DNA of 64,000 nucleotides from NCBI GenBank assembly GCA_963848635.1, contig CAWKEA010000005.1:175341-239340 (forward strand). The letters are read 5' to 3'. Below the pieces are notes generated by a model. It saw only the letters and a program-made list of their open reading frames with translations, had not been told where the DNA came from and searched no databases. Of this stretch, positions 1,119-59,573 are shown piece by piece. This DNA is from an uncultured bacterium. GTDB lineage: Bacteria; Patescibacteriota; Minisyncoccia; Phycocordibacterales; PALSA-1337. Made by a program: the position numbers and the translations under genes. Position 1 is the stretch's first letter, and every line of letters begins with the position of its first letter.

Positions 1119-1165
1119 ACTTTAGAATTATTTTAACTTTTCTTAATGGGCTTTTTGTATACTGC
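1119..1165 (+). promoter_or_regulatory. Conserved promoter module, copy 1 (cTTTAGAATTATTTTAACTTTTCTTAATg..tttttgTATACT) 7 nt upstream of the comEC ATG
   Basis: Near-identical module at 4251-4294 (reverse), 18796-18837, 44334-44378 (reverse) and 58891-58949. Ends in a TATACT/TATAAT -10-like hexamer. Confidence 0.6.
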
Positions 1166-1171
1166 ACGGAT

Positions 1172-3463
1172 ATGCCGATCGACAAGATATTCTATTCTGC
1201 ATGCCTCGGCTTTTCGGCCGGCGTTTTGTGGCGCTCCTTGGCGCGTCTCGACCTTATAGACGTCATATGCATCGGCTCGATATATCTTCTGCTTGTCTTT
1301 CTTTTCTCGATCATTTTAAAGAAAGACTGGGACATCCTTATATCGGTTTTCACGATCGCCCTTGTCCTTGGAATAGCGAGATTCCAGATAGCAGATATAC
1401 AGCCGCCAGCTATCTTTGAAGACCAAGTGAATAAAACCGTTTCTTTTTCTGCCATGATCGTTGACGAACCGGCGAGAAATGCGAGCCAGACGAAATTGAT
1501 CCTCGAGACGAATGGCTCTCTCGAGTCGGCTACAAAAATCACTGGCGATACAAAAGACGTCCCCGACGCTCACACTGAAATAGGCCAAGCAAAAACTGCC
1601 GATATGCGCATTAAAACAAATACAAAGACTGAAAAAGATCCGCTCCGAGTCGGCATCGTCGTCTTTTCAAAAGGAAACGGCGGATTCCATTACGGCGACC
1701 TTGTCAAAGTGACTGGCAAATTAGAAAAGCCCGCTGATTTCATGACAGACCAGGACATGGAATTCGACTACGTGGACTATCTGCGCAAAGACGGGATCTT
1801 TTACACCATTCATAATCCTGATATCAAGATCCTTTCATCCGGTCACGGCAACCCTATCAAGCGCTGGCTCTTCTCGTGGCGGGAAAGATTCGATACAGCC
1901 ATTGATACGGCGATACCCTCGCCCGAATCAACAGTGATCGGTGGCATCATCATCGGCGAACGCTATGCCTTCAGCGAACAATTGCGCCAGATATTCATGG
2001 ATACGGGCACCATCCACATCGTCACTATCGGCGGCTATCATGTCACTCTCGTGGCTGAATGGATCATGAAGATATTCTCGTTCCTACCGAGATTCGCAGG
2101 CTGGGGAGCCGGCATCGTCAGCATATTCCTCTATGTCATCGTCACGGGCGGAGCAGAGACATCAATCCGCGCAGGGATCATGGCGGCTCTCGCCATTTTT
2201 GCCACTGCGACCGGACGCACATACGCTTCCGGCCGAGCGCTCGTCCTCGCCGCGATCGTCATGATATGCATAAATCCGTTCGTCCTCGTCTACGACATAT
2301 CGTTTGATCTGTCGTTCATGGCCACGATCGCCATCATATTCCTTTCGCCGCGTCTCGAGCCGTATCTCGAATGGATCCCATGGAAATGGCTGCGCGGAAT
2401 CGTCACTGTCACCGTTTCGATGTATGCTTTCGCGTTGCCCTTCGTGCTCTATCGCATCGGCAATCTCTCGCTCGTATCACTGCCCGCGAACATGGCTATC
2501 GTGCCCCTCATGCCCGCGACTATGATCGCCGGATTCATCACCGGTTTCGCGGGGCTGATATCGCCCATGCTTGCTGTCATTCCCGGCAAGATCGCTTACA
2601 CGCTCCTCTACTATCAGATCGGCGCCGTGGCTCTCCTTGCAAGATTGCCGTTCGCCGCAGTCGCCATCCAGAATTTTTCACTGCCGATCGTCATCGCCAT
2701 TTACGCGTGCTTCGGTTGTATCTTTTTAAAGGGAGACAGTAAGGCAAGAAAAGCCGCAGGCGCGGCTCTCGGGCCGCAAAGCCTGACGGCCAAGCGTCTT
2801 TCGAAGCTCAATGTTCTCATGCTTTCGATCCCCCTCATCATCACTTTTTCAGCCGCAGGTTTTCTGTATTACAGCCATTACCGGTCAGACCAAGCTTCCT
2901 TGAAAGCCATTCAAAAGCTTCTTTACGAAACAACGACTGCTGACCCTTCGGAAGTATTTTCTTCCACATCGACGGCTCATGTCTTTATGCCGAATCCAAG
3001 AACTGCTTCAAGCGATTGCAAAATAAATGGTGTTTACCCCGACCACACGTGCACACCCGGCGCCGTATTCACCGACGCGACAACAGAGGATGTCTGCGTC
3101 AAAGGCTATACAGCGACCGTCAGAAACGTGTCGGAAAAGACAAAGAAACAGGTATTCGAAGAATACGGCATAGCCTATCCGCAACCGGCTGGCGCGTACG
3201 AGGTCGACCATTTCATTCCCCTGGCTCTTGGCGGGGCGAACGATATCGCCAATCTTTTCCCAGAGGCGGCCGCACCGACGCCGGGATTTCACGAAAAAGA
3301 CGTCGTCGAAGTCTTCTTGCAAGAAGAAGTGTGCTCCGGCCACGCCGCGCTTGCCGCCGCTCAACGGCAAATCTCCACCGATTGGCTGGCAGTCTATGAG
3401 AATATCCCGTTCGAAGACATTCAAAAGATCAAGAATAAGTATGGCGGGAGCGCGGTTCAATAA
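1172..3463 (+). CDS. comEC: ComEC/Rec2 DNA-internalisation channel with a C-terminal HNH-like nuclease domain (no metallo-beta-lactamase domain)
   Basis: 763 aa. N-terminal OB/DUF4131-like region, then a polytopic competence domain. The C-terminal ~150 aa carry 'YEVDHFIPLALGGANDIANLFP' (HNH D-H...N...N signature) where the usual MBL domain would be. Confidence 0.8.
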   Translation: MPIDKIFYSACLGFSAGVLWRSLARLDLIDVICIGSIYLLLVFLFSIILKKDWDILISVFTIALVLGIARFQIADIQPPAIFEDQVNKTVSFSAMIVDEPARNASQTKLILETNGSLESATKITGDTKDVPDAHTEIGQAKTADMRIKTNTKTEKDPLRVGIVVFSKGNGGFHYGDLVKVTGKLEKPADFMTDQDMEFDYVDYLRKDGIFYTIHNPDIKILSSGHGNPIKRWLFSWRERFDTAIDTAIPSPESTVIGGIIIGERYAFSEQLRQIFMDTGTIHIVTIGGYHVTLVAEWIMKIFSFLPRFAGWGAGIVSIFLYVIVTGGAETSIRAGIMAALAIFATATGRTYASGRALVLAAIVMICINPFVLVYDISFDLSFMATIAIIFLSPRLEPYLEWIPWKWLRGIVTVTVSMYAFALPFVLYRIGNLSLVSLPANMAIVPLMPATMIAGFITGFAGLISPMLAVIPGKIAYTLLYYQIGAVALLARLPFAAVAIQNFSLPIVIAIYACFGCIFLKGDSKARKAAGAALGPQSLTAKRLSKLNVLMLSIPLIITFSAAGFLYYSHYRSDQASLKAIQKLLYETTTADPSEVFSSTSTAHVFMPNPRTASSDCKINGVYPDHTCTPGAVFTDATTEDVCVKGYTATVRNVSEKTKKQVFEEYGIAYPQPAGAYEVDHFIPLALGGANDIANLFPEAAAPTPGFHEKDVVEVFLQEEVCSGHAALAAAQRQISTDWLAVYENIPFEDIQKIKNKYGGSAVQ

Positions 3464-3480
3464 TAGAAGTCGGACCCCGA

Positions 3481-3503
3481 GTGTCAAGATGACATCTTGA
3501 CAC
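3481..3503. repeat. REP-like palindrome GTGTCAAGATGACATCTTGACAC (copy 1)
   Basis: Perfect 10-bp inverted arms in the comEC/LTD convergent gap. Same core as seven other loci. Confidence 0.8.
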
Positions 3504-3519
3504 GAAATTTAGATATATC

Positions 3520-4206
3520 TCACTTCGTTTTTTTTAACTTTTTTGAAAAAAACGGTGCGACAAAAGCCGCGCCATTCTCCGCTTTCGGAGTGCCCCCAAT
3601 AGCCGACGAAGTATGCCAGCCGAGCGTCTTTGGATCGCGCTCCATCGTCCTCTTGGTCGCGTCATCGCCCGCAGGCCATCTTGAGCTGGCAACAACCTGA
3701 TCGATCAAGGAACAATACCTGTCAAAGAGCCGGAAGCTGTCGCCGGCATTTTTGATTATGCCGACGAAAAAATTGTCCGCTTTGATGCTCGGCAAAAAAT
3801 CCATTCCGCCTCGTTCCAAAAGATAGAGCCCTCCCGCCGCGACCTTTGCCCCGCTCCGGAAGACGACTTTTATCTTGCCGCTCGCATTCGCGAGCTCCCA
3901 GCCGCCGATCGAAACAGTGCTCGAGGAGACGTTCTTGAGCTCGATCCACTCGTGATTCGAGCTCGTCGCATCGCCCATCCAGGCGATCTCGTTCATGATG
4001 ACAGGAACATGCTCCGGGATCTCTGTCGTGTCGAAAGCGCAGTTCGTGATCGGAGCCGTCGAAGCACTGCTTACGCCCGTCGATGAAGACGCTTGACCGA
4101 CGCTATCCACCAGATTTTTGACGCTGTTATTCCTTGAAAAATAAAAAGCCATCCCGGCAATAGCTAGTACTGTTATACAGGTGAGGATCGGGTGTTCGCT
4201 GAACAT
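3520..4206 (-). CDS. Lamin-tail-domain (LTD) protein with N-terminal membrane anchor
   Basis: 'NEIAWMGDATSSNHEWIELKN' is the LTD signature. N-terminal TM helix. 228 aa. Confidence 0.7.
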   Translation of the reverse strand: MFSEHPILTCITVLAIAGMAFYFSRNNSVKNLVDSVGQASSSTGVSSASTAPITNCAFDTTEIPEHVPVIMNEIAWMGDATSSNHEWIELKNVSSSTVSIGGWELANASGKIKVVFRSGAKVAAGGLYLLERGGMDFLPSIKADNFFVGIIKNAGDSFRLFDRYCSLIDQVVASSRWPAGDDATKRTMERDPKTLGWHTSSAIGGTPKAENGAAFVAPFFSKKLKKTK

Positions 4207-4250
4207 GAAAGTTATACGGCTTTATCTCCATCGATATCATCTACACGCGC

Positions 4251-4294
4251 AGTATACGAAAAATTCATTAAGAAAAGTTAAAATAATTCTAAAG
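4251..4294 (-). promoter_or_regulatory. Conserved promoter module, copy 2 (reverse orientation), upstream of the LTD gene
   Basis: Reverse complement reads ctttagaattattttaacttttcttaatgaatttttcgTATACTgcgcg, near-identical to copy 1 including the TATACT. Confidence 0.6.
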
Positions 4295-4316
4295 AAACCC
4301 TAAAATGACACATTAC

Positions 4317-4380
4317 ATAGGTCCGCATAGGTCGGACCTTGGTACATTGATATATAGGTCGCTATATAGGTCGGGCCTAT
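4317..4380. repeat. Cluster of four ATAGGTCG(G/C) motifs (two direct, one inverted pair)
   Basis: ataggtccgcataggtcggacc ... tatataggtcgctatataggtcgggcctat. Lies between the 4-gene operon end and the LTD promoter. Confidence 0.6.
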
Positions 4381-4433
4381 GTAAACTAAGAAAAAACCGC
4401 CCCGTTTTTAATGAGGTGGCCTATGATCGTCGG

Positions 4434-5362: not shown

Positions 5363-5392
5363 GACGTTTTTTATGAGGGATATGCTAGCATT

Positions 5393-10251: not shown

Positions 10252-10515
10252 AAATCATAAAGCGACGCCTCCTGGAGATTTATTTTTTTAGGCCTACATT
10301 TTTTAATCGTAGGATCGTACGATTTTCCAAGACTCATAGCCGTACAATTAACGTTTTGCATGCCAAATCGTAGAATTGTACGGTTTACAAAAGCCTCATT
10401 TAAAAAGATATGCCATAGATACATACCATCAAAAAAGCTGCTTCTAAGCGACTTTTTTATTTGTGTTTTTCCTTTTATACTTTTTATATTTTCAGGCCTA
10501 TTATTTAAAATCCTA

Positions 10516-10875
10516 TTATTTGAAATCCTCTATCTTTATCGAAAAATATGGTTGGCGATGGCCGGCTTTCTTGAAATACTTGCTCTTTTGCTTGTACTTG
10601 ATGACCGTGACTTTTTTGGCACGGGCGATCCGAGCGATAGTGCCGGTGACGCGGGCCTTTTCGATATACGGAGTGCCGATAGTAGTGTCAGAGCCATTGT
10701 CGACGAGCAAAACCTTGTCAAAGACGACTTTGTCGCCCTCCTTATATTCGGCGGTTTTTGCGGCGTCTTTGCCGTCCCCTTTTCCTTTTGGAGCCGCGAG
10801 CTTTTCAATGCGAATGAGGTCGCCTTTTGCAACGGTGTATTGCTTGCCGCCTGTTTCGATGATGGCTATTTCCAT
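10516..10875 (-). CDS. rplU: 50S ribosomal protein L21
   Basis: 'MEIAIIETGGKQYTVAKGDLIRIEKL' is the canonical L21 N-terminus. No rpmA follows. Confidence 0.9.
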   Translation of the reverse strand: MEIAIIETGGKQYTVAKGDLIRIEKLAAPKGKGDGKDAAKTAEYKEGDKVVFDKVLLVDNGSDTTIGTPYIEKARVTGTIARIARAKKVTVIKYKQKSKYFKKAGHRQPYFSIKIEDFK

Positions 10876-10976
10876 AGGGAATTATTCTCGCATATTTGTA
10901 AAAAGAATGCAAATTTTAGCTTCCCTTGTCGGACTCAAAAAACCGAGCGACCAGTTGAAGGCTGGCACGACTGCAT

Positions 10977-11714
10977 TCAAACGCTGAGCGCCATATATTC
11001 CAAAAGCTGTTTTACGGATGCCGCGCGATCGCGGAGATATGATTCGGTTCGCGCGATGGCGGCAAGAGGAGCGGCGTTCTTTTCGATGCCGCTGTCATGC
11101 AAAAGCTTCGAGAGATCCGCGCAGAATTCGAGAGCGGCGCTTTTCGGCTTTTTGCCGTCAGAGATATCCGCGGATAGCTTGTCGGCAAAGGCGACGCGGC
11201 TAGCCAGCGGTGAAGCGAGAAAATCCCGTACGAGATCCGATCTCGTGGCCGATACAAGATCCGATCTTGTAGTCCGCACCATGTAAAGCCTCGAACGCAC
11301 CGTCGGCAGGAGCGATTCATCCGAAGGTATGACGATGAAAAAAAGCGCGTACCCGTTCGGCTCCTCGAGCATCTTTAAAAGAGCGTTTTGCGCTTCGTGC
11401 GTGATCGAACGGATCACGATGACAAAAAATCTCCGAGCGACATCGCCGCCCCGCGAAGAGAACGGCCGCGTGGCGTGCATATCCTTTAGCTCGCGGGCAT
11501 CGTCGATGGTCAGAATTTCATACGTACGGACGAAGACGTCGGGATTGCCTTGAATTGAGACGCCCTGCTTTTCCTTTAAAAAAGAAAGTATCTCTAGTTG
11601 CGCGTCTTCAGCGCCGACGATGCAGTAGGCATGATGAGAAAGATTTCCGAGCGATTGCGATAGTTCCATGCCAGCTATTGTATCAAATAGTCCCGGCAAA
11701 ATCTGTCTCTTCAA
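10977..11714 (-). CDS. holB: DNA polymerase III delta' subunit-like protein
   Basis: 'THEAQNALLKMLEEPNGYALFFIV' matches the delta'/clamp-loader box. Contains an in-frame tandem 'TRSDLVSATRSDLV' encoded by the AGATCCGATCT repeat. Confidence 0.7.
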   Translation of the reverse strand: MKRQILPGLFDTIAGMELSQSLGNLSHHAYCIVGAEDAQLEILSFLKEKQGVSIQGNPDVFVRTYEILTIDDARELKDMHATRPFSSRGGDVARRFFVIVIRSITHEAQNALLKMLEEPNGYALFFIVIPSDESLLPTVRSRLYMVRTTRSDLVSATRSDLVRDFLASPLASRVAFADKLSADISDGKKPKSAALEFCADLSKLLHDSGIEKNAAPLAAIARTESYLRDRAASVKQLLEYMALSV

Positions 11715-18738: not shown

Positions 18739-18795
18739 AAAGGATACTATAGCGCATCGCGCATGATGGGGCAATGAAAAAAGATTTTAATCTTT

Positions 18796-18837
18796 CTTTA
18801 GAATTATTTTAACTTTTCTTAATAACTTTTTGATATG
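18796..18837 (+). promoter_or_regulatory. Conserved promoter module, copy 3, upstream of dprA
   Basis: ctttagaattattttaacttttcttaataactttttgaTATGGT. Confidence 0.55.
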
Positions 18838-18861
18838 GTTGTGAGGTTTGATAAAAAACTT

Positions 18862-19755
18862 ATGACGCCCGCAGAAACCATGCATACCATATTCGAGCTT
18901 CGAAAAACCGAATGGCCGGAGCTTTTACTGCAGATGAACGACCCGCCGAAGCGTCTCTACTGCATCGGCCAACAGCCGGCGCGGAAAGCCATATATCTGA
19001 CAGTCATCGGCTCTCGCACGCCGACGGATTATGGGCGCGATTGCGTGCATCGTCTCGTAACAGGGCTCGCGGGATATCCGATCATCATAGTTTCTGGCCT
19101 TGCCGTCGGCATCGATGGACTCGCCCACGAAGCGGCGCTCGAAGCTGGTTTGAAGACAGTCTCCTTCCCAGGCTCCGGATTGAATTGGGACGCCATCTAT
19201 CCGTCCCAGCATCGTGCTTTGGCCGATAGAATAATCAGTGCTGGCGGATGCCTTTTATCTGAATTCAAACATGAGCAAATGGGCACATATTGGTCGTTTC
19301 CCCAGCGCAACCGCCTCATGGCAGGCATCTCTCAAGCCACGCTCATAATAGAGGGCAAGTTGAAGAGCGGGAGCCTCATCACCACAAAACAGGCTTTCGA
19401 CTACAATCGATCCGTTTTAGCGGTGCCGGGTTCCATCGACAACCCTCTTTCCGCTGGGCCAAACATGCTCTTGCATACGCCTTCGGCTCTGGCTGTCAGT
19501 TCCCCGAAAGAGATACTGGAGGAGCTCGGCTTCGAGGCAGACGAATCAGCGCCGAGCATTTCCCCCGAGCGGCTGGCGGCTCTCGATCCGCTTTCGCGCC
19601 GGATAGTCGAGGCCCTCGAAAACAGGCCGACGAACAAAGATGATCTTTGTCGCGATCTCGGCATGCCGATGACAGAGCTCAATCCGCTCATTTCTTTCCT
19701 TGAAATAGACGGCCTCGTGAGGACAAACGGGAACATGGTGAGGAGAGTCCGCTAG
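18862..19755 (+). CDS. dprA: DNA processing protein DprA/Smf
   Basis: 'VSGLAVGIDGLAHEAALEAG' and 'GSLITTKQAFDYNRSVLAVPGSIDNPLSAGPN' match the DprA Rossmann core. ATG chosen downstream of the -10. Confidence 0.85.
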   Translation: MTPAETMHTIFELRKTEWPELLLQMNDPPKRLYCIGQQPARKAIYLTVIGSRTPTDYGRDCVHRLVTGLAGYPIIIVSGLAVGIDGLAHEAALEAGLKTVSFPGSGLNWDAIYPSQHRALADRIISAGGCLLSEFKHEQMGTYWSFPQRNRLMAGISQATLIIEGKLKSGSLITTKQAFDYNRSVLAVPGSIDNPLSAGPNMLLHTPSALAVSSPKEILEELGFEADESAPSISPERLAALDPLSRRIVEALENRPTNKDDLCRDLGMPMTELNPLISFLEIDGLVRTNGNMVRRVR

Positions 19756-19834
19756 AATTTTCAGACGATTTTTTTGCCGCCTGATTTGCCAAACAATCCG
19801 TCATCGTGCAATACTTACGCGCACAACTATATAT

Positions 19835-22165
19835 ATGAAGCTCGTCATCGTCGAAAGCCCGTCGAAAGCGAAAACGATCTCGAAATATCTCGGGAAGGAT
19901 TTTCGTGTGCTTGCATCCGTCGGCCATGTGCGCGACTTGCCAAAATCCAACAAGAAAGCCATCGACATCGAAAACGGCTTCGTGCCGCATTATGAAGTCG
20001 TGGCAAAGAAAGCCGACATCATCGCCGACATACGGAAAGAAGCGGCAAAAGCAGACGAGATCCTCATCGCTACCGACCCTGACCGTGAAGGCGAGGCCAT
20101 CGCATGGCACTTGCAGGAACTGCTGACGAATAAAAAAATCGGTGGCACAGTGCCAAAGAGTGAGATCAAGCGCATCACGTACCACGAAGTGACGAAAGAG
20201 GCCGTCGAAGAAGCTTTGAAGCATCCGCGCGCCATCGATGAGCACCTGCGCGAGGCACAGGAAGCGCGACGCGTGCTCGACCGGCTCGTCGGCTATGACT
20301 TGTCAGGCCTGATCTGGAAAAAAGTCCGCTACGGCCTCTCTGCGGGGCGCGTCCAATCGCCCGCTCTGCGCATCATCATGGAGCGCGAGCGCGAGATACG
20401 AGCCTTCAGACCGGAGGGCTATTGGACGATTGTCGGCAATTTCAAAACAGTTGGCAAGTCGAATCTGGCCCTGACCTGCGTCGAGGAACCCCGCGACAAA
20501 ACAGAGGTCGATCGAATACTTGATATCGCACGCCTGAATCCTTGGAAAATTTTAGACATAGAAGAGAGCGAACAGAAGCGCCAGCCGCGCGCGCCCTTCA
20601 TCACGTCCACCCTGCAACAGACCGCCAGCTCGCGGCTCGGCTTCTCGCCTTCTCGCACTATGGGCATCGCCCAAAAATTGTACGAGGCCGGATATATCAC
20701 CTATATGCGCACGGATTCGACGAACTTGAGCCAACAGGCTCTCGGAGCGATCGCGACGACCGTGGAAAAGATGTACGGAAAAGAATACCTCCAGTTCCGC
20801 ACGTACTCCGCAAAGAGCAAGAATGCCCAGGAAGCGCACGAGGCCATCCGTCCATCTCATTTCGAAAAAGAATCAGCGGGCGCTAACGATGAGCAGAAAA
20901 GACTCTATCGGCTCATCTGGGCCCGCACCGTCACTTCGCAGATGACCGATGCGCGCGTGGCAAGGACAAAGATAGTGGCGAATGTGGAGGGAGTCAACAA
21001 AGGGCACAAGGCAAAGGGTAAAAGTGAGGAGACAAAAAGCGAAGCGATCGGAAGAGATCGAGGGGATATCCCCAACTTCACCGCCACCGGCTCACGCATC
21101 ATCTATGACGGCTGGCTCAGGGCCGACCCAGAATCGACCGGCGAAGAGGTCAATCTGCCGAAATGCGCAAAGGACGAGAAGCTCGATCTGGTCTCGATCG
21201 ATTCAGAGGCCAAACAAACCCAGCCGCCAGCCCGCTACACAGAAGCAGGCCTCATCAAAGAGCTCGAAAAGCGCGGCATAGGACGTCCTTCGACGTATGC
21301 TTCGATCACACGGACGATCGAGGAGCGCGGCTATGTCGAAAAAGAGGGGCGCTCGCTCAAGCCGACCGATACCGGCGACGTCGTCTCTTCTTTTCTTGAA
21401 GAGAATTTCCCTTCGTACATCAGCGACACGTTCACCGCGGAAATGGAGAACGAGCTCGATGAGATCGCCACAGGCGAACGCACGTATCTTAAGACCTTGT
21501 CCGATTTTTACGGTCCTTTCAACAAAGAAGTCAAGGCAAAGGACAAGCTCGCAAAAGCTACGAACCTCGGACACGCCGATCCGAAATTCAAATGCCCGAA
21601 ATGCGGCAGTCCGATGGAGATAAAGCTCGGCCGCGGCGGCAAATTCTTGTCCTGCTCGCGCTATCCCGATTGCGATGGAGCCCTTTCTATCGACGGCATG
21701 GAATACAAAAAAGACGAACCGATCGGCACGGATCCGACGACTGGCCTGCCGATCTTCGTGTTGAATGGACGATTCGGCCCCTATGTCCAGCTCGGCGTCA
21801 AATTGCCAAAGGAAAAGAAGACAAAGAAGCCAAGAAAAACGAAACGTGCAAAAGAAGCTTCTGCGCCAGCGCCTGCAAAGCCGCGAATGGCCTCGATCCC
21901 AAAGACCGTCGATCCATCCAAGGTTACCGTGGCAGAAGCCTTGAGATATCTTTCCTTGCCGCGCATCCTCGGAACCGATCCCTCGACTGGCAAAGAGATA
22001 AAAGTCTCCATCGGCAGATTCGGGCCGTATGTCGTGCGCGACAACGATTTCCGTTCCATCAAGCCGCCGGAAAATCCCTACGACATAACCCTTGAAATAG
22101 CCCTCGAGCTTCTCGCACAAGAGAAAAAACAGCGCGGTTTCGCAAAGAAAAAGAAGGCTGAATGA
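19835..22165 (+). CDS. topA: DNA topoisomerase I
   Basis: 'MKLVIVESPSKAKTISKYLG' Toprim, active-site region, C-terminal C4 zinc ribbons 'CPKCGSPM'. Carries the 24-nt repeat agcgaagcgatcggaagagatcga in frame at ~21036. Confidence 0.9.
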   Translation: MKLVIVESPSKAKTISKYLGKDFRVLASVGHVRDLPKSNKKAIDIENGFVPHYEVVAKKADIIADIRKEAAKADEILIATDPDREGEAIAWHLQELLTNKKIGGTVPKSEIKRITYHEVTKEAVEEALKHPRAIDEHLREAQEARRVLDRLVGYDLSGLIWKKVRYGLSAGRVQSPALRIIMEREREIRAFRPEGYWTIVGNFKTVGKSNLALTCVEEPRDKTEVDRILDIARLNPWKILDIEESEQKRQPRAPFITSTLQQTASSRLGFSPSRTMGIAQKLYEAGYITYMRTDSTNLSQQALGAIATTVEKMYGKEYLQFRTYSAKSKNAQEAHEAIRPSHFEKESAGANDEQKRLYRLIWARTVTSQMTDARVARTKIVANVEGVNKGHKAKGKSEETKSEAIGRDRGDIPNFTATGSRIIYDGWLRADPESTGEEVNLPKCAKDEKLDLVSIDSEAKQTQPPARYTEAGLIKELEKRGIGRPSTYASITRTIEERGYVEKEGRSLKPTDTGDVVSSFLEENFPSYISDTFTAEMENELDEIATGERTYLKTLSDFYGPFNKEVKAKDKLAKATNLGHADPKFKCPKCGSPMEIKLGRGGKFLSCSRYPDCDGALSIDGMEYKKDEPIGTDPTTGLPIFVLNGRFGPYVQLGVKLPKEKKTKKPRKTKRAKEASAPAPAKPRMASIPKTVDPSKVTVAEALRYLSLPRILGTDPSTGKEIKVSIGRFGPYVVRDNDFRSIKPPENPYDITLEIALELLAQEKKQRGFAKKKKAE

Positions 22166-25958: not shown

Positions 25959-26366
25959 CTAGCGCTTATTTGCGACGTGAACGAAGTAGCCGTTCGTTAT
26001 AGACAGCTCTCGAGCAGCTTTTATGATGACCCAGCTATCAGACCAATTGCCGTAACTGCCATCCATATACGTATAAACGTTGACGATCGGTTGGTTCGTA
26101 GCTGTCTCGTTCTGGATGAACGATGAGAGCTCGCCATTTGCATTCGTGTGTGCGTCGCTGATGTAATACCACCCGTCTGTCAGATGGACAGGTTCACTTG
26201 AGTTGATCCCCTTTTCGGCGATGACGTGAAGCATGGCAGTCAAAGGATCTCCAGCTGTCAGCTGTGCCTCTTCGACATGAGGAATCAGTAAGGCGGCAGT
26301 TATTGAGATTAAGGCAATCACGATCAACAATTCGCTAAATGAGAATCCGCCATTTTTCGTCTTCAT
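25959..26366 (-). CDS. Type IV pilin-like protein (prepilin N-terminal methylation motif)
   Basis: 'GGFSFSELLIVIALISITAALLIP' is a class III signal plus a hydrophobic pilin helix. Confidence 0.7.
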   Translation of the reverse strand: MKTKNGGFSFSELLIVIALISITAALLIPHVEEAQLTAGDPLTAMLHVIAEKGINSSEPVHLTDGWYYISDAHTNANGELSSFIQNETATNQPIVNVYTYMDGSYGNWSDSWVIIKAARELSITNGYFVHVANKR

Positions 26367-30576: not shown

Positions 30577-31350
30577 CTATCCGACCATTTTCTCGACTTG
30601 AGCGACGATCTCGTCGAGAGAGACGGCGGCCTTGATTATGAAGCCGGCGGCGCCGAGCTTCTTTGATTTCTCTATATCCGATGGCGACGACAGGTTAGAA
30701 AGCATGATGACCGGAATTTTCTTGAATCTCTCCTGCATCTTGAGCTTTTGCAAGACTTCAAACCCATTCAGGTCCGGCATGACGATGTCGAGCATGACGA
30801 TGTCAGGGGTGTCACTCTCAGCGAGCTTCAATGCTTCGACGCCATTGCTGGCTTTGATGAGATTGTAGCCGAGTGAGATGAATTTCTTTGAAAGAATGTC
30901 CGAAAGGAATTTGTCGTCCTCGACCCATAGTATCTTGATCGCCTTTTTTGCCTTCCCTTGTGCCATCTCTGGAACGTAATTGAGTATACTGCAGACCTTG
31001 TCGATGACTTCTTCGGGGCTGATATGCGTCTTGATCAGATATTCCCGGATGCCAACGACGGGCAAGCGCTTCATATCGACAGGAAGCCCCATGTTCGAGG
31101 CGACGATGACGGGAATCTTTGTTATGTCTTTGTCGTAGGATTTCGCCGCGAGGAGGTCGTAGCCGTCCATGCCCGGCAGTACCACGTCGGCGATGAGGAT
31201 ATCGGGACGCAGTTCGCGCATCTTTGACAATGTGGCGTTGCCGTCTTCGACAGTGATGGCGCGCATGCCTTTTTCTTTTGCCAAGGCAGAGATCGATTCG
31301 GCAAGAAAGGCGTCCGAGAGAGCTATGAGAATGAGCTTTGAAGGGATCAT
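30577..31350 (-). CDS. Response regulator with two tandem receiver (REC) domains and no output domain
   Basis: 'DILIADVVLPGMDGYDLL' and 'DIVMLDIVMPDLNGFEVL' are acid-pocket/phospho-acceptor patterns, each followed by 'KIPVI..S'. Confidence 0.75.
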   Translation of the reverse strand: MIPSKLILIALSDAFLAESISALAKEKGMRAITVEDGNATLSKMRELRPDILIADVVLPGMDGYDLLAAKSYDKDITKIPVIVASNMGLPVDMKRLPVVGIREYLIKTHISPEEVIDKVCSILNYVPEMAQGKAKKAIKILWVEDDKFLSDILSKKFISLGYNLIKASNGVEALKLAESDTPDIVMLDIVMPDLNGFEVLQKLKMQERFKKIPVIMLSNLSSPSDIEKSKKLGAAGFIIKAAVSLDEIVAQVEKMVG

Positions 31351-31458
31351 GTGTAGTATCAAGCAGAGAAATGATACCACGGCGACTTCGATCGGACAAC
31401 CAACAGAAAAGCGCGCCGACGGGTGTCTTCATGAAGCGCTTCATGATATAATGTGGGC

Positions 31459-38433: not shown

Positions 38434-39433
38434 TCATTTTTTCCTCAAAACCGCCTTTTTTGCCGCCGAATAGATGCTGTTTTCGTCCATTCCGTAGAGC
38501 CTGATGAGCTCCTCGGGAGTGCCGCTCTGACCGAATCTGTCATGGACGCCGATGAATTCAATGGGCACGGGAAAATTACGGGCGAGACATTCTGCGACGG
38601 CCGAACCCATGCCGCCGGCGATCTGATGTTCTTCGACCGTGACAACGGCGCCCGCCTCATGGGCAAGGTGGACGACGGCTTCTTCATCGAGCGGCTTTAT
38701 GGTGACGAGATTCATGACGACTGCCGCAATTCCTTCACCCTCAAGTTTTTTGGCGACGACAAGAGCTTTGTAGAGGAGCGCACCGGTGGCAATGATGCCG
38801 ACGACAGGCTTTTTCCCGCTTGCCCTGAAATATTCCTGCGCTTTTCCAATTTCAAAAGGAGTGTCCGCAGTCGTGATGAGCGGCGTCTTTTCGCGGGCGA
38901 GGCGGATGTACGTCGGATCTTTTGTTCGAGCGGCGGCGATGGTCGCCTTCTTTGCCTCTATCGCATCGCACGGCGAGATGACGACCATGCGCGGTATGAC
39001 GCGAGTAATGGCGATATCTTCGATGGCCTGATGCGTGCCGCCGTCGGGGCCGACAGAAACGCCAGCGTGCGAGCCGGCGATTTTCACCGGCACATTGTTA
39101 TAGGCAATCGTCGTGCGGATCTGCTCCCAATTGCGGCCAGGCGAGAACATGGCGTACGAACTGATGAAAGGGAACCTTGCCCATGTGCGCCATACCAGAG
39201 GCGACCGCTGCGAGATTCTGCTCAGCGACGCCGATCTCGACGAACCTGTCGGGATATTTCTTTTGAAAGAGGTCCATGCGCGTCGACTCTGCAAGGTCAG
39301 CGCAAAGCCCGACGATATTCTTGTCGCTGTCTGCCGCGATGACGAGGCCTTCGCCAAAACCCTGGCGAATCGGCAATTGCTCGACGTCGGGCGAGAAGAG
39401 CTTTGCGTTGAGTTTTAGGTTAGGGTTTAACAT
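38434..39433 (-). pseudogene. tktB: Transketolase C-terminal subunit, interrupted by a +1 frameshift near 39168-39170
   Basis: Frame A gives 'MLNPNLKL...GMAHMGKVPF'. Frame B continues 'ISSYAMFSPGRNWEQIRTTIAYNNVPVKIAGSHAGVSVGPDGGTHQ'. An extra T in ccctTTcat (AAA on the plus strand). Confidence 0.75.
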
Positions 39434-39809: not shown

Positions 39810-40109
39810 TCATGCAAGCTCGGCGATTTCCCTTTGTACATGTCTCGCATAGTTGATATCTTTACGAGGGATTTTCCAAGCTTTTTTGATAAATCCGTGG
39901 ATCAAATAGATTTTATCGTTCTTAAAGACATATAGGATCCTGATTTGTTTTCTTCCGTGAATCCTCAACTCAAATAAACCATCTCCAAGACACTTTGAAT
40001 CCGGCATAGCAAGTAGATGTCCTTTTTGTTCAAGTAAACCGAGCGACCTGCGAGTTCGTCCAAATGATTCATCGTCAAGACAATTCATAAAACTCTCTAG
40101 ATATATCAT
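39810..40109 (-). CDS. RelE/ParE-superfamily toxin (HigB/Gp49-like)
   Basis: 'LGDGLFELRIHGRKQIRILYVFKNDKIYLIHGFIKKAWKIPRKDI' matches the Gp49/HigB fold. Start placed at MIYLESF. Confidence 0.7.
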   Translation of the reverse strand: MIYLESFMNCLDDESFGRTRRSLGLLEQKGHLLAMPDSKCLGDGLFELRIHGRKQIRILYVFKNDKIYLIHGFIKKAWKIPRKDINYARHVQREIAELA

Positions 40110-40201
40110 CGCAAGGAGATAATCGTTTGTAACAAAAGGAATCAAAGCGATCATGGCAACCACTGGTAGCGCTTCACCGATTATTTTAAGGATTTTCATC
40201 G

Positions 40202-40348
40202 TCATTTTAAGTCTTTCACCATCTCCTCATAGCACCCTTTGCATAGATGCCATTTCCGCACCATACCATCCTTGTCAGGTGGCGACAGCAAAATGCCGCC
40301 AAAGTCGATTAATTCTTTCTTGCACCTGTCGCAGATTGGTTTGATCAT
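40202..40348 (-). CDS. Small zinc-ribbon protein
   Basis: 48 aa. 'CDRCKK...CKGC' two CxxC pairs. 4-nt overlap with the upstream gene. Confidence 0.45.
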   Translation of the reverse strand: MIKPICDRCKKELIDFGGILLSPPDKDGMVRKWHLCKGCYEEMVKDLK

Positions 40349-41021: not shown

Positions 41022-41900
41022 TTATTGATGTTCCCCCCTTACCCTCCCGCCAAGCGTCCGAATCTCACCAAGCGCGCGACGAGCCGTCTCGATCTCGGCT
41101 GGCGTCGTCGGCGGCTTGCCATGCCATTCGAACTGGCGCTCGAATTCGGGGATGCCCTTGGACGGGATGGTGTGGGCGATGATGATGGATGGCCGACCGG
41201 ACATGGCTTGCGCCTGGTTCCAGGCTTCATCGAGCGCGCGAAAATCGTGGCCGGAGACTTCTTGGACATGCCAGTTGAAGTTGACCCATTTTTCAGGCAA
41301 GGGCTCGAGCGGCATGACGTTCTCGGTGTAGCCGTCGATCTGGATGTTGTTGCGGTCGAGGATGACCGTCAGATTCTGCATCTTTTCGCGCCCCGCGAGG
41401 AGGATGGCTTCCCAGCTGTTCCCCTCGTCCAATTCGCCGTCCGACATGAGACAGACGATCCTGCGGCCCGAAGAGACGCCGCTGTCCATTCTGTCTGCGA
41501 TGGCCATACCGACCGCTTGGGACAAGCCGCAACCAAGGGGACCAGACGAAGTCTCGAGCATAGGCAAAAAATCGCGATGTGGATGGCCTTGCAGTCTTGA
41601 ACCTAATTTGCGCAAAGTCTTTAGTTCAGAAACGGGAAAATATCCCGAGTGCGCCATGGTCGCGTAGAGCACGGGACATATGTGTCCATTCGACAAAACC
41701 ACCATATCGCGATAGGCCCACGTCGGATTCTTTGGCTCATGCTTTAACGCGTGAAAATACAAATAGGTAAAGACGTCAGCCATATCGAGCGGTCCGGCAG
41801 TATGGCCGGATTTCGCCTCGATCAACATCTCGATGATCGAACGCCGAATGTCGAGCGCTTTTTTCTCGAGGAATTTTACTTTGTCGTCAGTGAGGGACAT
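41022..41900 (-). CDS. tktA: Transketolase N-terminal (TPP-binding) subunit
   Basis: 'SGHTAGPLDMADVFTYLY' and 'GPLGCGLSQAVGMAIA...SDGELDEGNSWEA' TPP-binding motifs. Confidence 0.85.
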   Translation of the reverse strand: MSLTDDKVKFLEKKALDIRRSIIEMLIEAKSGHTAGPLDMADVFTYLYFHALKHEPKNPTWAYRDMVVLSNGHICPVLYATMAHSGYFPVSELKTLRKLGSRLQGHPHRDFLPMLETSSGPLGCGLSQAVGMAIADRMDSGVSSGRRIVCLMSDGELDEGNSWEAILLAGREKMQNLTVILDRNNIQIDGYTENVMPLEPLPEKWVNFNWHVQEVSGHDFRALDEAWNQAQAMSGRPSIIIAHTIPSKGIPEFERQFEWHGKPPTTPAEIETARRALGEIRTLGGRVRGEHQ

Positions 41901-42543: not shown

Positions 42544-43221
42544 TTATATATTCTTGAACCGTTCAATCGTCTCGACGACATTCTCGCTCTCGAATATTGC
42601 CGAACCGATAATGAGGCGGTCTGCGCCGGCGGCGCGCAAAAGCGGCGCTGTTTCGAGATTGACGCCGCCGTCGATCTGGATTTCAAGATCCGGATATTTT
42701 TCCTTCGCTTCTTTTATCTTTGCGATGACTTTTTCATCGAAAGACTGACCTTGGAAACCGACGTTATCTATGCCCATGAGTTGGATGTATTTTATAGTGC
42801 ATTCGCGTATCTTGTCTTTGTATCTTTCAAGAACGTCGATCGGCGTGTCGATGTTCAAAGCCAGCCCTATCTCTACTTTTCCTAATAGTTTTTCAATAGC
42901 GTCCGCTATATTTCCCTTGGCTTCAGTGTGAAGCACGATGCGAGAGGCTCCAGCAGCGACATATGTCAAGATGTCATCTTGACAGTTATTCACCATCAGA
43001 TCGAACTCGTATTCGATTTCTTCCCAATATGGCATGCCACGATCCTCATGCGCAATGGCTTCAAAATTCGCGTCGGGCTTTTTATACGGCCAGCTGGGTG
43101 ACGGCGTGAATTGCCCGTCGCAGATGTCGATTTGGACAAGAGGAACGAGGCCTTTGACTCGAGCGACGTGCTCCTCGAGGTCGGCAAAGTCTTTTGGAAG
43201 GATGGCGGGAATTATTTCCAT
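42544..43221 (-). CDS. rpe: Ribulose-phosphate 3-epimerase-like protein
   Basis: TIM-barrel 'IPAILPKDFADLEEHV...VQIDICDGQF' and C-terminal 'IQIDGGVNLETAPLLRAAGADRLIIGSAIF'. Contains a REP palindrome in frame. Confidence 0.7.
   Translation of the reverse strand: MEIIPAILPKDFADLEEHVARVKGLVPLVQIDICDGQFTPSPSWPYKKPDANFEAIAHEDRGMPYWEEIEYEFDLMVNNCQDDILTYVAAGASRIVLHTEAKGNIADAIEKLLGKVEIGLALNIDTPIDVLERYKDKIRECTIKYIQLMGIDNVGFQGQSFDEKVIAKIKEAKEKYPDLEIQIDGGVNLETAPLLRAAGADRLIIGSAIFESENVVETIERFKNI
42964..42984. repeat. REP-like palindrome TGTCAAGATGTCATCTTGACA inside the rpe CDS
   Basis: Perfect 10-bp arms. Confidence 0.8.
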
Positions 43222-43225
43222 GTGA

Positions 43226-43468
43226 TCAGATAGTTTTCATATCAGGATAGAACTTGTCAAAACGACTTTCGAATCTATCCAAACGCCCACCAAACTGATC
43301 TAATCGATTATTGAATTGATCGAGCCTATTCTCTAGCTTGTCGACGCTCTTCTGGAGAAAACCGACTTTCTCATATAGCCGAATAATAGCTTCCTTTGTA
43401 TTTCCAAGCAACAACAAAGACACAAAGTTGCCGATTTTTTCTGCGATAGTGATTTTTTCAGTAAGCAT
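43226..43468 (-). CDS. Hypothetical coiled-coil protein with NRLDQF heptad-like repeats
   Basis: 80 aa. 'ENRLDQFNNRLDQFGGRLDRFESRFDKF'. Confidence 0.5.
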   Translation of the reverse strand: MLTEKITIAEKIGNFVSLLLLGNTKEAIIRLYEKVGFLQKSVDKLENRLDQFNNRLDQFGGRLDRFESRFDKFYPDMKTI

Positions 43469-43540
43469 AATATTGAGTATGAGTTAGCTGCAAGTAAATT
43501 TTACAATTACAGGTAAAGGAAATCAATAGTAAACGGTATT

Positions 43541-44026
43541 TTATTCGATGCTATCGATCTCCTCTATTCGCCTTCGATGCCTTTCTTCGTTCGAAAACGG
43601 CGTCGAGAGCCATAGTTTGACCGCGGCTATCATCTCGTCCTTTGAAACAAAGCCCGCGCCGATGGAGAGGATATTCGCGTCGTTATGCTCGCGGGAGAGG
43701 CGGATGATATCACGAGAGACGACGTCAGAACCGCCATACCAGACAGCCGCACGAACGCCAGGAAGACGATTAGCCACCATCGCTTCGCCTTGGCCTGACA
43801 TGCCAAAAATGACGGCTTTTGTGTTTTCGGGATCTTCGACGACTTTCATGGCCGCCTTGACCATGAATTCCGGGTAATCGTCGTCCTTGACGAAGGAATA
43901 AGCGCCGACATCTACTACATCAAAGCCTTCCTCTTTTAAATATGAAAGAAGCTCATTTTTGCGCTCAAGGCCTGCGTGATCTGATGCGACGATTATTCTT
44001 AATTCCTTTTTTGGCTGTTTTTCCAT
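43541..44026 (-). CDS. rpiB: Ribose-5-phosphate isomerase B
   Basis: 'LRIIVASDHAGLERKNEL' and 'VIFGMSGQGEAMVANRLPGVRAAV' RpiB/LacAB signature. Confidence 0.85.
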   Translation of the reverse strand: MEKQPKKELRIIVASDHAGLERKNELLSYLKEEGFDVVDVGAYSFVKDDDYPEFMVKAAMKVVEDPENTKAVIFGMSGQGEAMVANRLPGVRAAVWYGGSDVVSRDIIRLSREHNDANILSIGAGFVSKDEMIAAVKLWLSTPFSNEERHRRRIEEIDSIE

Positions 44027-44115
44027 GGTTTTGTTTTTTATTCCGGCTAGCGAGGATCGGCGTGGACGAGTATTCTCGTACATGACGTCCGAGCGAAGAC
44101 GGAAGAAAGTAATCT

Positions 44116-44301
44116 TTATTGTTCGTTCATTATATCAAGCATATCCTCTAGTACGTCAATACGCCTTGATGCATGGTCGAGATCGCTCGATGTGGCATGT
44201 TCCCTGTCGAATTCGTCGAAGCGCTCGTCTATGCATTGTAGTCTATCATAAATGGCGCGGATATCGCGGATAATGAAATCGCTGTTTTGTTCTGTAGGCA
44301 T
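44116..44301 (-). CDS. Hypothetical 61-aa acidic protein
   Basis: Sits 33 nt downstream of a copy of the conserved promoter module. Confidence 0.4.
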   Translation of the reverse strand: MPTEQNSDFIIRDIRAIYDRLQCIDERFDEFDREHATSSDLDHASRRIDVLEDMLDIMNEQ

Positions 44302-44333
44302 GATGTTTTCTATAGCTAACTATTAATGCATAT

Positions 44334-44378
44334 ATTATAGAAAAACGGTTATTAAGAAAAGTTAAAATAAAAATAAAG
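44334..44378 (-). promoter_or_regulatory. Conserved promoter module, copy 4 (reverse), with TATAAT
   Basis: Reverse complement reads ctttatttttattttaacttttcttaataaccgtttttcTATAAT. Confidence 0.5.
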
Positions 44379-44464
44379 ATTTCTTAATAATTCTATCGAC
44401 TCGTTTCTGTTGACAAGGTCGACCAGTTTGATATCATTATGACACGCTACAGTTATGTCCATCG

Positions 44465-58293: not shown

Positions 58294-58372
58294 GAAAGTG
58301 TCTCGTATACTAGCAGAAAACATTGAAAAAAGCAGGTTTTACAAGGTGGCGCCTCAATCGCGAACAAGGTAG

Positions 58373-58397
58373 CATGTCAAGATGACATCTTGACATG
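58373..58397. repeat. REP-like palindrome CATGTCAAGATGACATCTTGACATG (12-bp arms)
   Basis: Read directly, between lepA and the RRM gene. Confidence 0.8.
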
Positions 58398-58472
58398 GCA
58401 TTGCAACAAAAAACCGCCCAAACTTTTACATTTGCGCGGTTCTTTGTTTTTGACGAGAGGTACGCTCTGTCT

Positions 58473-58748
58473 TTAGCGCGCCATGCGAGGAGCGCGAGGC
58501 TCCATCGGGCGTGCTTCGTTGACGGTAAGCGCTCTTCCATCCATTTCCTTGCCATTGAACATATCAATAGCCTTGGCAGCCTCGTCATCCGCGGACATTT
58601 CCACGAATCCGAAACCCTTTGAACGGCCGGTCATCTTGTCTATGATAACCGTTGCTGATGCGACTGCGCCTGCTTGCTCAAAATAAGTCTTGAGCGAAGC
58701 GTCGTTAGTCGTATAAGGCAGATTGCCTACATATAGCTTTTTTGCCAT
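58473..58748 (-). CDS. RRM-domain RNA-binding protein
   Basis: RNP-2 'LYVGNLPY' and RNP-1 'KGFGFVEM'. 91 aa. Confidence 0.8.
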   Translation of the reverse strand: MAKKLYVGNLPYTTNDASLKTYFEQAGAVASATVIIDKMTGRSKGFGFVEMSADDEAAKAIDMFNGKEMDGRALTVNEARPMEPRAPRMAR

Positions 58749-58849
58749 TTTTCTTTATAACCCTCGTCTTTTACAATAACGGTAAGCGATGAGGAAAACT
58801 TACACCCTGGCATCATAGCACAGAGCGGCTATTTTTGCAAGTTTTGCGT

Positions 58850-58870
58850 CGTCAAGATGACATCTTGACG
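58850..58870. repeat. REP-like palindrome CGTCAAGATGACATCTTGACG (upstream flank of the RAYT gene)
   Basis: Perfect 10-bp arms. Confidence 0.8.
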
Positions 58871-58890
58871 TACTGCTCTGCTGCTCTGCT

Positions 58891-58949
58891 CTTTTCTTTA
58901 TAATTCTTTATAATTATTTTAATATTTCTTAATAACCGGTCTGTATAAT
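58891..58949 (+). promoter_or_regulatory. Conserved promoter module, copy 5, with TATAAT -10, upstream of the RAYT gene
   Basis: cttttctttataattctttataattattttaatatttcttaataaccggtctgTATAAT. Confidence 0.5.
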
Positions 58950-58976
58950 TTTGTACGAGATGACATCTTGAACATC

Positions 58977-59573
58977 ATGCACATAATCGGCGAACGATAT
59001 CACGTCTACAATCGCGGCGCGCATAAAGCGCCTATTTTCAATGACTCAGGCGACTATGATCGACTTATGGCGTTGCTATATATCGCCAACACCTCAAAAA
59101 GGCTCGTTTTCAGCAGAATAAAGGAGGGCGACATTTTCTCGATCGAAAGGCCTGACACCCTCGTCGGAATATTCACCTATTGCCTCATGCCGAACCATTT
59201 ACATATCGGCATGGTTGAAAAAGAAGAAGATGGCATCGAACGATTCCTGAAAAAGCTCGGCATAGCGTACGGCATGTACTATAACAAAAAATATAGCCAT
59301 TCCGGCACTTTGTTTCAAGGCGCATGCAAATGCAAACATATAGACAGCCAAGAATACCTGCAATATCTCATCGAATACATACATTTGAACCCATTTGGAA
59401 TCGAGGAACCGGATCTCTTAAAAGAAGCCAGGCGTGAGCTTCGCGACGAAGCGGTCGCATTCTCGAAAAATTACAGATATTCGAGCTTCATGGATTATCT
59501 TGGCGTCAAACGCCCAGAAAACGCGATTTTGTGTCAAGATAACATCTCGCACAGCGTCAAGATGACATCTTGA
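58977..59573 (+). CDS. REP-associated tyrosine transposase (RAYT; IS200/IS605 TnpA-like HUH-Y1 enzyme)
   Basis: 'HVYNRG' N-terminus, HUH 'LMPNHLHIGM', catalytic Tyr in 'LQYLIEYIHLNP'. Flanked by REP copies at 58850, 58956 and 59555. The last one overlaps the stop. Confidence 0.75.
   Translation: MHIIGERYHVYNRGAHKAPIFNDSGDYDRLMALLYIANTSKRLVFSRIKEGDIFSIERPDTLVGIFTYCLMPNHLHIGMVEKEEDGIERFLKKLGIAYGMYYNKKYSHSGTLFQGACKCKHIDSQEYLQYLIEYIHLNPFGIEEPDLLKEARRELRDEAVAFSKNYRYSSFMDYLGVKRPENAILCQDNISHSVKMTS

Follow-up and report, generated by a model that had tools for sequence, protein, structure and literature searches.

Several described systems come close to the promoter element reported here. In Pho regulons, tandem 8-bp boxes separated by 3-bp linkers lie 10 bp upstream of the -10 element, the box of Synechocystis SphR reading CTTAACCT (PMC1906773), and Streptomyces PhoP uses 11-nt repeat units (PMC2275107). 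ComE of Streptococcus pneumoniae, a LytTR response regulator with tandem DNA-binding domains, acts on two direct repeats in promoters without a good -35 element (PMC4005675). Precedents for a cis-element common to a competence regulon are the CRP-S sites (Sxy/TfoX; PMC1635313) and the pneumococcal regulon (PMC6560143), and in Synechococcus elongatus the OmpR-family regulators RpaA and RpaB control pilus and competence genes (PMC7125226). The element in question here is a promoter module present five times in a stretch of 64,000 nucleotides, called the window throughout (assembly GCA_963848635.1, contig CAWKEA010000005.1, positions 175,341 to 239,340), from an uncultured bacterium of the Patescibacteriota (Minisyncoccia; Phycocordibacterales; PALSA-1337). 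Its copies stand before comEC, a gene for a lamin-tail-domain (LTD) protein, dprA, a 61-aa open reading frame (ORF), and a gene resembling transposases associated with repetitive extragenic palindromic (REP) sequences, here called RAYT-like. The module is probably a clade-specific promoter cassette, on whose repeats an activator would recruit RNA polymerase, and the genes behind it would form a regulon for DNA uptake, recombination and scavenging.

Bacteria of the Candidate Phyla Radiation (CPR, or Patescibacteria) have tiny genomes, few recognizable regulators and hardly any mapped promoters, and the role of their universally conserved com genes is debated between nutrition and recombination. 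Genetic work in Saccharibacteria shows comEC to be required for transformation yet non-essential (PMC10187176). Neither a CPR competence promoter nor the motif sequence turned up in full-text literature searches. The kind of element is already known, both as a competence-regulon cis-element and as a direct-repeat activator site; its sequence, its lineage and its gene set are new. It gives a first sequence-level sign of competence controlled as one gene set in an uncultivated lineage of the Parcubacteria (CPR).

The 27-mer TTTAGAATTATTTTAACTTTTCTTAAT occurs exactly at 1121-1147 (plus strand), 4267-4293 (minus) and 18797-18823 (plus), and with three mismatches at 44351-44377 (minus) and 58907-58933 (plus); the chance expectation from 100 dinucleotide shuffles of the window is 0.00. 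A search with an 18-mer core returns the same five sites. An nhmmer profile built from 23 copies in other genomes, none from the window, also finds only these five (E 1.8e-9 to 4.3e-8) among window matches listed up to E=10. All five are oriented toward the adjoining gene, with a -10-like hexamer 10 nt beyond (11 nt at 44351). The five oriented copies and the genes behind them that the first-pass annotation had reported (ComEC, LTD, DprA, the 61-aa ORF and a Y1-transposase-like gene) are borne out, the copies by 27-mer, shuffles and independent profile, and four of the genes by Pfam. The features are as follows, with loci from public sequence designated L002, L017 and so on.

1109-1147, plus strand: comEC module, a degenerate distal 22-bp unit TTTTAAAAAAACTTTAGAA and the consensus proximal unit TTATTTTAACTTTTCTTAAT (profile E 1.9e-8)
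1158-1163, plus strand: -10 hexamer TATACT of the comEC promoter, 10 nt past the module and 8 nt ahead of ATG 1172, without TGn
1172-3463, plus strand: comEC (DUF4131 and Competence domains by Pfam), 69% identical to the module-driven ComEC of L017
4267-4306, minus strand: module of the LTD gene, ATTTTAGGGTTTCTTTAGAA and TTATTTTAACTTTTCTTAAT (profile E 1.8e-9)
4251-4256, minus strand: -10 hexamer TATACT of the LTD promoter, from the sequence
3520-4206, minus strand: gene for a membrane-anchored LTD protein (Pfam), convergent with comEC
18784-18823, plus strand: dprA module, two 22-bp units ATTTTAATCTTTCTTTAGAA and TTATTTTAACTTTTCTTAAT (profile E 2.3e-9; Tandem Repeats Finder, TRF, period 22, 2.2 copies)
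18834-18839, plus strand: -10 hexamer TATGGT of the dprA promoter, spacer and hexamer identical in L020
18835/18862-19755, plus strand: dprA (Pfam), probable start 18862
19835-22165, plus strand: topA (Pfam), directly after dprA
44351-44390, minus strand: module of the 61-aa ORF and pentose-phosphate operon, TTATTAAGAAATCTTTATTT and TTATTTTAACTTTTCTTAAT (profile E 4.4e-9)
44334-44339, minus strand: -10 hexamer TATAAT of the 61-aa ORF promoter, after an 11-nt spacer, from the sequence
44116-44301, minus strand: 61-aa coiled-coil ORF, heading the group 42544-44301
43541-44083, minus strand: rpiB (Pfam), 3' of the 61-aa ORF
43226-43468, minus strand: 80-aa ORF between rpiB and rpe
42544-43221, minus strand: rpe, of the pentose-phosphate operon
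41022-41900 (N-terminal) and 38434-39357 (C-terminal), minus strand: transketolase genes further downstream, beyond rpe
58892-58933, plus strand: module of the RAYT-like gene, TTTTCTTTATAATTCTTTATAA and TTATTTTAATATTTCTTAAT (profile E 4.3e-8)
58944-58949, plus strand: -10 hexamer TATAAT of the RAYT-like gene, from the sequence
58968/58977-59573, plus strand: RAYT-like Y1 (HUH) transposase-like gene, a weak Pfam match, bordered by CAAGATGACATCTTG palindromes

The distance from the -10 hexamer to the start codon runs from 8 nt (comEC) up to about 44 nt (LTD), a correction of the 7 to 40 nt first given. Because the hexamer lies only 8 nt before ATG 1172, the comEC mRNA would be leaderless; a sigma-70 consensus scan finds no -35/-10 pair at this promoter. 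The genes dprA and topA probably form one operon (18862-22165), and their order is kept in L022, L135, L138 and L140. The window order of module, 61-aa ORF, rpiB and rpe is repeated in L108, where the genes overlap. The RAYT-like protein carries an HUH-like motif, LMPNHLH, and scores below cutoff against both Pfam Y1_Tnp (19.8 bits, cutoff 23) and NCBIfam REP_Tyr_transpos (24.6 bits, cutoff 80); a PDB sequence search with it gave no useful match. Its orthologue in L048, 69% identical, is likewise module-driven.

The anatomy of the module was read from an alignment of 34 non-identical copies from the window and public sequences, with position conservation taken from 30 unique copies. The conserved stretch is about 56 bp long, not about 45 bp as first estimated, and is made up of a tandem pair of 22-bp units, followed by a 10-bp spacer and the -10 hexamer; flanks are random beyond -40 and beyond +17. 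The distal unit is ATTTTAACTTTTCTTTAT(C/A)(T/A) and the proximal unit TTATTTTAACTTTTCTTAAT, while the semi-conserved spacer opens with AAC. Two loci, L017 and L002, have three 22-bp units, and TRF describes L017 as period 22 with 100% match, 2.6 copies and a sub-period of 11. The module thus amounts to at least four direct repeats of about 11 bp with YTTAAY cores at about -62 to -23, in the order TTTTAACT / CTTTATCT / TTTTAACT / CTTAATAA, with spacing that alternates between 10 and 12 bp inside each 22-bp unit. Dyad symmetry is absent from it. The searched 20-mer sits in the proximal unit; the distal unit TTTTAAnTTTTCTTTAT, which lies outside the search string, is conserved at C-27 (97%), T-24 (100%) and A-23 (97%) in the 30 copies. 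The -10 hexamer, at +11 to +16 past the module, has position frequencies of T.93 A.97 T.93 A.87 A.70 T.97. The spacer measures 10 nt in 28 of 30 copies and 11 nt at the window's 61-aa ORF; in L054 the hexamer was not located. ATG follows 4-10 nt past the -10 in 15 of 30 copies, indicating leaderless mRNAs.

The fixed 10-bp distance from module to -10 and the lack of a canonical -35 would also suit an alternative sigma factor that reads part of the module, TTTCTTAAT for example, as its -35 element, and streptococcal late competence genes use a dedicated sigma factor (PMC7665891). The -10, however, is a near-perfect housekeeping TATAAT, like that of the window's promoters without the module, and a repeat array of 40-66 bp, sometimes triplicated (L017, L002), extends far beyond the footprint of sigma region 4. 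We regard this alternative as very unlikely. The first-pass annotation had proposed a dedicated regulator or an alternative sigma factor: with a housekeeping-type TATAAT at the -10 the sigma half is not expected to hold, while the tandem direct repeats point to an activator rather than a sigma factor, and we infer that the regulator half is correct.

Of the window's 52 genes, 19 carry a TAnnnT hexamer that ends 4-10 nt ahead of the start codon (random expectation 7%), and the genome appears to be largely leaderless; examples of starts with such a hexamer are 23213 (parB), 25640 (ddl), 30514 (uvrA), 41900 (tktN), 6612 (Mrr) and 948 (UDG). Seven of the 19 have an extended -10 TGn (UDG, Mrr, parB, ddl, uvrA, Hsp20 and tktN), all seven without the module, and the module promoters have no TGn. 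A scan for TTGACA-N16-18-TATAAT left the comEC, LTD and dprA modules without a call on the sense strand. The best -35 candidate at the modules, TTAACT, has a 19-bp spacing, outside 16-18 bp. Because the modules have neither a -35 nor an extended -10 TG, they bear the signature of activator-dependent promoters, and we infer such dependence for them.

A general housekeeping promoter was rejected as an identity for the module, since the rpsA, typA, lepA, gap, dnaB, parB, ddl and tRNA genes of the window lack it and others use the extended -10. An SOS/LexA-type regulon was also rejected: the module is missing at uvrA, uvrC and recR, and its repeats are direct and form no dyad. Nor is the module a known RNA element, because an Rfam scan of the window found six tRNAs only. 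A further explanation dispenses with any regulator. The phased T-tracts could form an UP element or curved DNA touched by the alpha subunits of RNA polymerase, and would then mark constitutive, highly expressed genes and not a switchable regulon. The module is very A/T-rich, its T-runs recur each 10-12 bp across about -62 to -23, the region in which UP elements and curved DNA exert their effect, it has no dyad symmetry, and competence is constitutive in some bacteria. Yet curvature requires phasing and not sequence, and it is the non-T positions that are most conserved, the unsearched distal unit included (C-27 97%, A-23 97%, AAC). Typical highly expressed genes of the window (rpsA, typA, lepA, gap, tRNAs) are without the module, whereas the genes that have it form a functionally coherent set. 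We therefore find a factor-independent promoter doubtful.

Public sequence was scanned with the 20-mer. Relatives of the window DprA that carry names belong to the Paceibacterota, Pacebacteria or Parcubacteria. The scan of 185,579 species genomes returned 18 loci, mostly chance matches in AT-rich genomes, and only two of them, L002 (a Parcubacteria metagenome-assembled genome, MAG) and L017, have the full architecture; a metagenome scan returned 115 loci. When 135 exact 20-mer matches are sorted by GC content, a strict -10 at N10-11 is present in 25 of 56 from loci with GC of at least 0.37 versus 1 of 79 from AT-rich loci, and a second unit in 20 of 56 versus none of 79. No real copy lies inside a gene, and every copy faces a downstream ORF, the reverse of the scatter through coding regions without orientation bias that the first-pass annotation had named as evidence against its proposal. 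Motif and protein-homology searches together yielded about 40 more operons behind a module, every one of them from a single Paceibacteria clade. Judging from these searches, the module is peculiar to a single Paceibacteria clade (Parcubacteria, CPR) of about family rank.

In the motif-first searches the bare motif was used, with no assumption about genes, and the genes behind it were then named by Pfam. These include ComEC (L017/L106, L117), ComM (L051, L110), a PilB-type T2SSE ATPase (L002), type IV pilins (L046, L121), a small coiled-coil protein followed by RecA (L098), rpsF-SSB-rpsR-RecA (L107), rpsF-SSB-rpsR (L118), RhuM-DprA-TopA (L022), the 61 aa-rpiB-rpe operon (L108) and NYN-domain nucleases (L041, L028). 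Further genes found in this way encode a MazF toxin (L076), a YafQ toxin (L113/L032), DUF3800 (L032), LPD3-like small proteins (L020, L028, L052) and large secreted proteins (L049, L054, L109), besides the RAYT-like gene of L048. A possible ComFC 3' of the NYN gene in L041, of which only 49 truncated residues are available, is left out of the count as unverified. Pilus genes, ssb and recA, all three predicted by the first-pass annotation to lie downstream of the motif, were found there. The presence of the same element at comEC, dprA, comM, recA, ssb and pilus genes supports a DNA-uptake regulon with a common promoter module, although the competence regulon first envisaged proves wider, with nucleases, toxins, RhuM and the pentose-phosphate operon included.

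A small acidic coiled-coil family (N-terminus MPTEQN..., motif RFDEFD...RRIDVLE) stands first in module-driven operons that continue to rpiB or recA. Its members lie in the window at 44116-44301 and 43226-43468, both on the minus strand, and in L108, L098, L023 and L138 (6263-6532); the family has no Pfam or NCBIfam match.

Like the cin-box of sigma-X, the CRP-S sites and the ComK boxes, the module is one common element before comEC or comEA, dprA, recA, ssb, comM and pilus genes. The cin-box, however, is a TACGAATA-type -10 for an alternative sigma factor, whereas the module has TATAAT or TATACT; CRP-S is a 22-bp palindrome, whereas the module repeats in tandem, is not palindromic and has a housekeeping -10; and ComK boxes are A4N5T4 dyads, which the module is not. 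The repeat period of ComE and LytTR sites is about 21-22 bp and matches the 22-bp unit. The repeat sequence of the ComE box is unrelated, and ComE serves early genes and reaches its uptake machinery via sigma-X, while the module stands directly on uptake and recombination genes. RpaA differs as a global circadian regulator that acts partly via a sigma cascade, and a clock context is not evident at the module.

The closest likeness in geometry is to Pho boxes (PhoB/SphR/PhoP), which are also direct repeats on one strand with a pitch of about 11 bp, two to at least four in number, replacing the -35 ahead of a sigma-70-type -10; the cyanobacterial box resembles the YTTAAY cores (PMC1906773). Unlike Pho boxes, the module alternates between 10- and 12-bp spacing and serves uptake and recombination genes, not phosphate transport. 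The modules might nonetheless be true Pho boxes, bound by a PhoB/SphR orthologue, with the gene set a phosphate-starvation regulon that takes up DNA for its phosphorus. The tandem arrangement, the 11-bp pitch and the 10 bp to the -10 equal those of E. coli Pho boxes, TTTAACTT, CTTTATCT and CTTAATAA agree with the Synechocystis SphR box at 6/8, 6/8 and 5/8 positions (PMC1906773), and nucleases and pentose catabolism are among the module genes. Against this, pst, phoU or phosphatase genes occur in none of the roughly 40 module-driven operons, in a set of sequences that includes no pst locus of the clade; no PhoB or PhoR gene was seen in the DNA examined; and recA, ssb, dprA and comM serve recombination, not phosphate scavenging. 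True Pho boxes are, on balance, distinctly unlikely.

Conservation was also assessed at orthologue-first loci, for which relatives of dprA, LTD and comEC were chosen by protein similarity alone. At dprA orthologues with 63-86% identity the module is present in four and degenerate in two. It lies upstream of RhuM-dprA-topA where DprA is 84% and 76% identical (L135/L137, L141), is reduced to a single unit with one mismatch in L144 (63%), and takes the degenerate form ...GGATTTTAAC-N9-TATAAT in L138 and L140 (74% and 63%). It is absent at dprA of two more distant Paceibacterota with 48-49% identity (L142, L143). Relatives of the LTD protein (67% identity; L145/L146) share the window neighbourhood of recR, dnaB, Mrr, LTD and convergent comEC. 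There a degenerate module precedes a PemK-like gene and LTD, and an exact module precedes a 163-aa gene and comEC, the latter arrangement recurring in L148. Applied to 109 kb of in-clade DNA, the profile gave seven matches, of which six fall at operons of dprA, comEC or LTD and the seventh at a gene for a small coiled-coil protein; in 49 kb from out-of-clade loci, with DprA about 49% identical, it gave none. The comparison of orthologous promoters that had been suggested for the module thus recovers it at dprA, LTD and comEC within the clade.

A distant Paceibacterota LTD homologue, P0143 (L147, 6001-7023), has the LTD fused to ComEA-type HHH_3/HHH domains. This fusion ties the LTD protein to DNA reception and suggests that the small LTD protein adjoining comEC may be part of a DNA receptor. 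Its earlier description as a core transformation protein goes too far as an established role, while the link itself holds through the common module, the adjacency to comEC and the P0143 fusion.

The window module adjoins comEC and dprA directly, while relatives have an accessory gene between module and competence gene, or within the operon. These arrangements are RhuM-dprA (L022, L135, L141), PemK-like-LTD and 163 aa-comEC (L145), 163 aa-comEC (L148), dprA-NYN-topA (L138, L144) and small protein-recA (L098).

Short multi-copy intergenic repeats that supply promoters to neighbours are known as Correia elements in Neisseria. A mobile or recombining promoter-bearing repeat of this kind, or one resembling a miniature inverted-repeat transposable element (MITE), perhaps spread with REP-like hairpins by the RAYT-like enzyme, would make the competence link incidental. 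Copies within a genome are identical and linker variants are genome-specific (TTTAGAATT in the window, TTTATCTTT or TTTATAATT elsewhere); breaks in metagenome contigs at the module mark it as a multi-copy repeat; GC-richer palindromes lie immediately upstream of many copies; and toxins and a transposase are among the targets. The 34-copy alignment, however, has random flanks with neither terminal inverted repeats nor target-site duplications, and placement relative to the start codon is precise, with constant orientation. The module is retained at orthologous genes whose flanks have diverged (dprA at 63-86%, comEC and LTD at about 67-69% identity) and is strongly enriched for one pathway. In its lack of inverted-repeat ends, fixed position, conservation at orthologues and mostly single-pathway targets it differs from Correia elements, and a mobile repeat is scarcely credible.

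Under the favoured explanation, an activator-dependent regulon, a sequence-specific activator would bind the repeats head-to-tail on one helix face, with the proximal repeat standing in for the -35, and would recruit the RNA polymerase holoenzyme as PhoB/OmpR-family (or LytTR-family) response regulators do. By association, the core of the regulon would comprise comEC, the LTD protein, dprA-topA, comM, recA, rpsF-ssb-rpsR, the pilin and the PilB-type ATPase, and its putative accessory members NYN nucleases, RhuM, the MazF and YafQ toxins, small coiled-coil proteins, the RAYT-like transposase and rpiB-rpe. Uptake and recombination genes would then be wired together in at least one Paceibacteria clade.

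Several points weigh against this explanation. Identity of the proximal 20-mer is forced in motif-first loci because the 20-mer was the search string, and because all positives come from one clade many loci are orthologous, not independent. For about half of the genes behind a module (toxins, RhuM, LPD3-like and secreted proteins) no part in transformation is known, and a pilin-like gene of the window (25959-26366) and the T2SSE ATPase of L148 are without the module. Neither the window nor the loci of relatives examined yielded a candidate DNA-binding regulator; the window's response regulator (30577-31380) has receiver domains only. Phased T-tracts could stimulate transcription without any factor, and both co-regulation and activator dependence are read from sequence.

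A more ambitious proposal, which we hold only tentatively, is that one lineage-specific regulator switches on all of these functions as a single programme. It would cover uptake (ComEC, the LTD/ComEA-like receptor, the pilus), single-stranded DNA processing and recombination (DprA, ComM, RecA, SSB, TopA), nucleases and toxins (NYN, MazF, YafQ), the RAYT-like transposase as an enzyme acting on single-stranded DNA, and pentose-phosphate catabolism. The regulator would probably have an OmpR/PhoB-like binding geometry, and the trigger might be phosphate or nucleotide starvation. If true, this would be a DNA-scavenging regulon linking transformation to nutrition in ultra-small CPR bacteria, and the first regulatory code read for the radiation. 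New candidate members of the pathway are the LTD protein, NYN nucleases, RhuM, small coiled-coil proteins and the RAYT-like enzyme, with a link to the pentose-phosphate operon. The module could serve as bait for the regulator (DNA pull-down, or DNA affinity purification sequencing, DAP-seq), as a compact native promoter for genetic tools, and for regulon prediction by scanning MAGs.

The module may also influence uvrB, because in the divergent region between dprA and uvrB a reverse-strand -10 sits 9 nt ahead of the uvrB ORF, whose opening TTG is at 18774. On the strand opposite the module, at 18784-18812 (minus) and likewise at 4278-4306 (plus), two A-type boxes form a promoter-like TTAAAA-17-TAAAAT pair. 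Module promoters with a 30-45-nt leader have a second -10-like sequence, (C/T)ATTAT, about 5-6 nt 3' of TATAAT (L023, L046, L121, L109, L108, L098, L135, L141, L138, L144, and the window at 44323-44328, minus strand), which may serve as an additional promoter, as a sigma-dependent pause site or as a signal of the transcription start region.

The REP-like palindrome CAAGATG(A/T)CATCTTG is present in 11 copies within the window, versus 0.33 expected. Positions (15 nt each) include 3485, 9436, 36476, 37582, 42967, 58378, 58853, 58956, 59535 and 59558, the last five flanking the RAYT-like gene. One copy sits where comEC and the LTD gene converge, between their ends, and some lie inside ORFs (recR, truB, rpe). 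Another palindrome, AGATCCGATCT, occurs three times directly upstream of the comEC module (1049-1106), the last copy ending 2 nt before the first repeat, and twice more (11233-11267) at the 3' terminus of ORF 10360-11286. At other modules, here and in relatives, the corresponding site has a different palindrome: AGGTCGGACCT/ATAGGTC at 4319-4378 in the window, GGAACCTCGCGAGGTTCC in L046/L093/L108/L110, and AGGTCnGACCT in L140/L144/L077. The palindromes upstream of modules may be insulating hairpins, REP elements or a second operator; a common second operator made of AGATCCGATCT, AGGTCGGACCT and CAAGATGACATCTTG is unsupported, as these differ between loci of one genome and occur elsewhere too.

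The pilin-like gene at 25959-26366 (minus strand), with an N_methyl motif and located 3' of uvrA-uvrC, has a Shine-Dalgarno-like GAAAGGA before its ATG, unlike most genes of the window. The N- and C-terminal transketolase subunit genes are about 1.6 kb apart, the gap holding a Gp49/HigB-like toxin gene (39810-40205) and small ORFs. A promoter-like TTGACA-N16-TATCAT at 44411-44441 (plus strand) is directed at a 20-aa ORF (44439), with no clear gene beyond, and runs away from the 61-aa ORF module.

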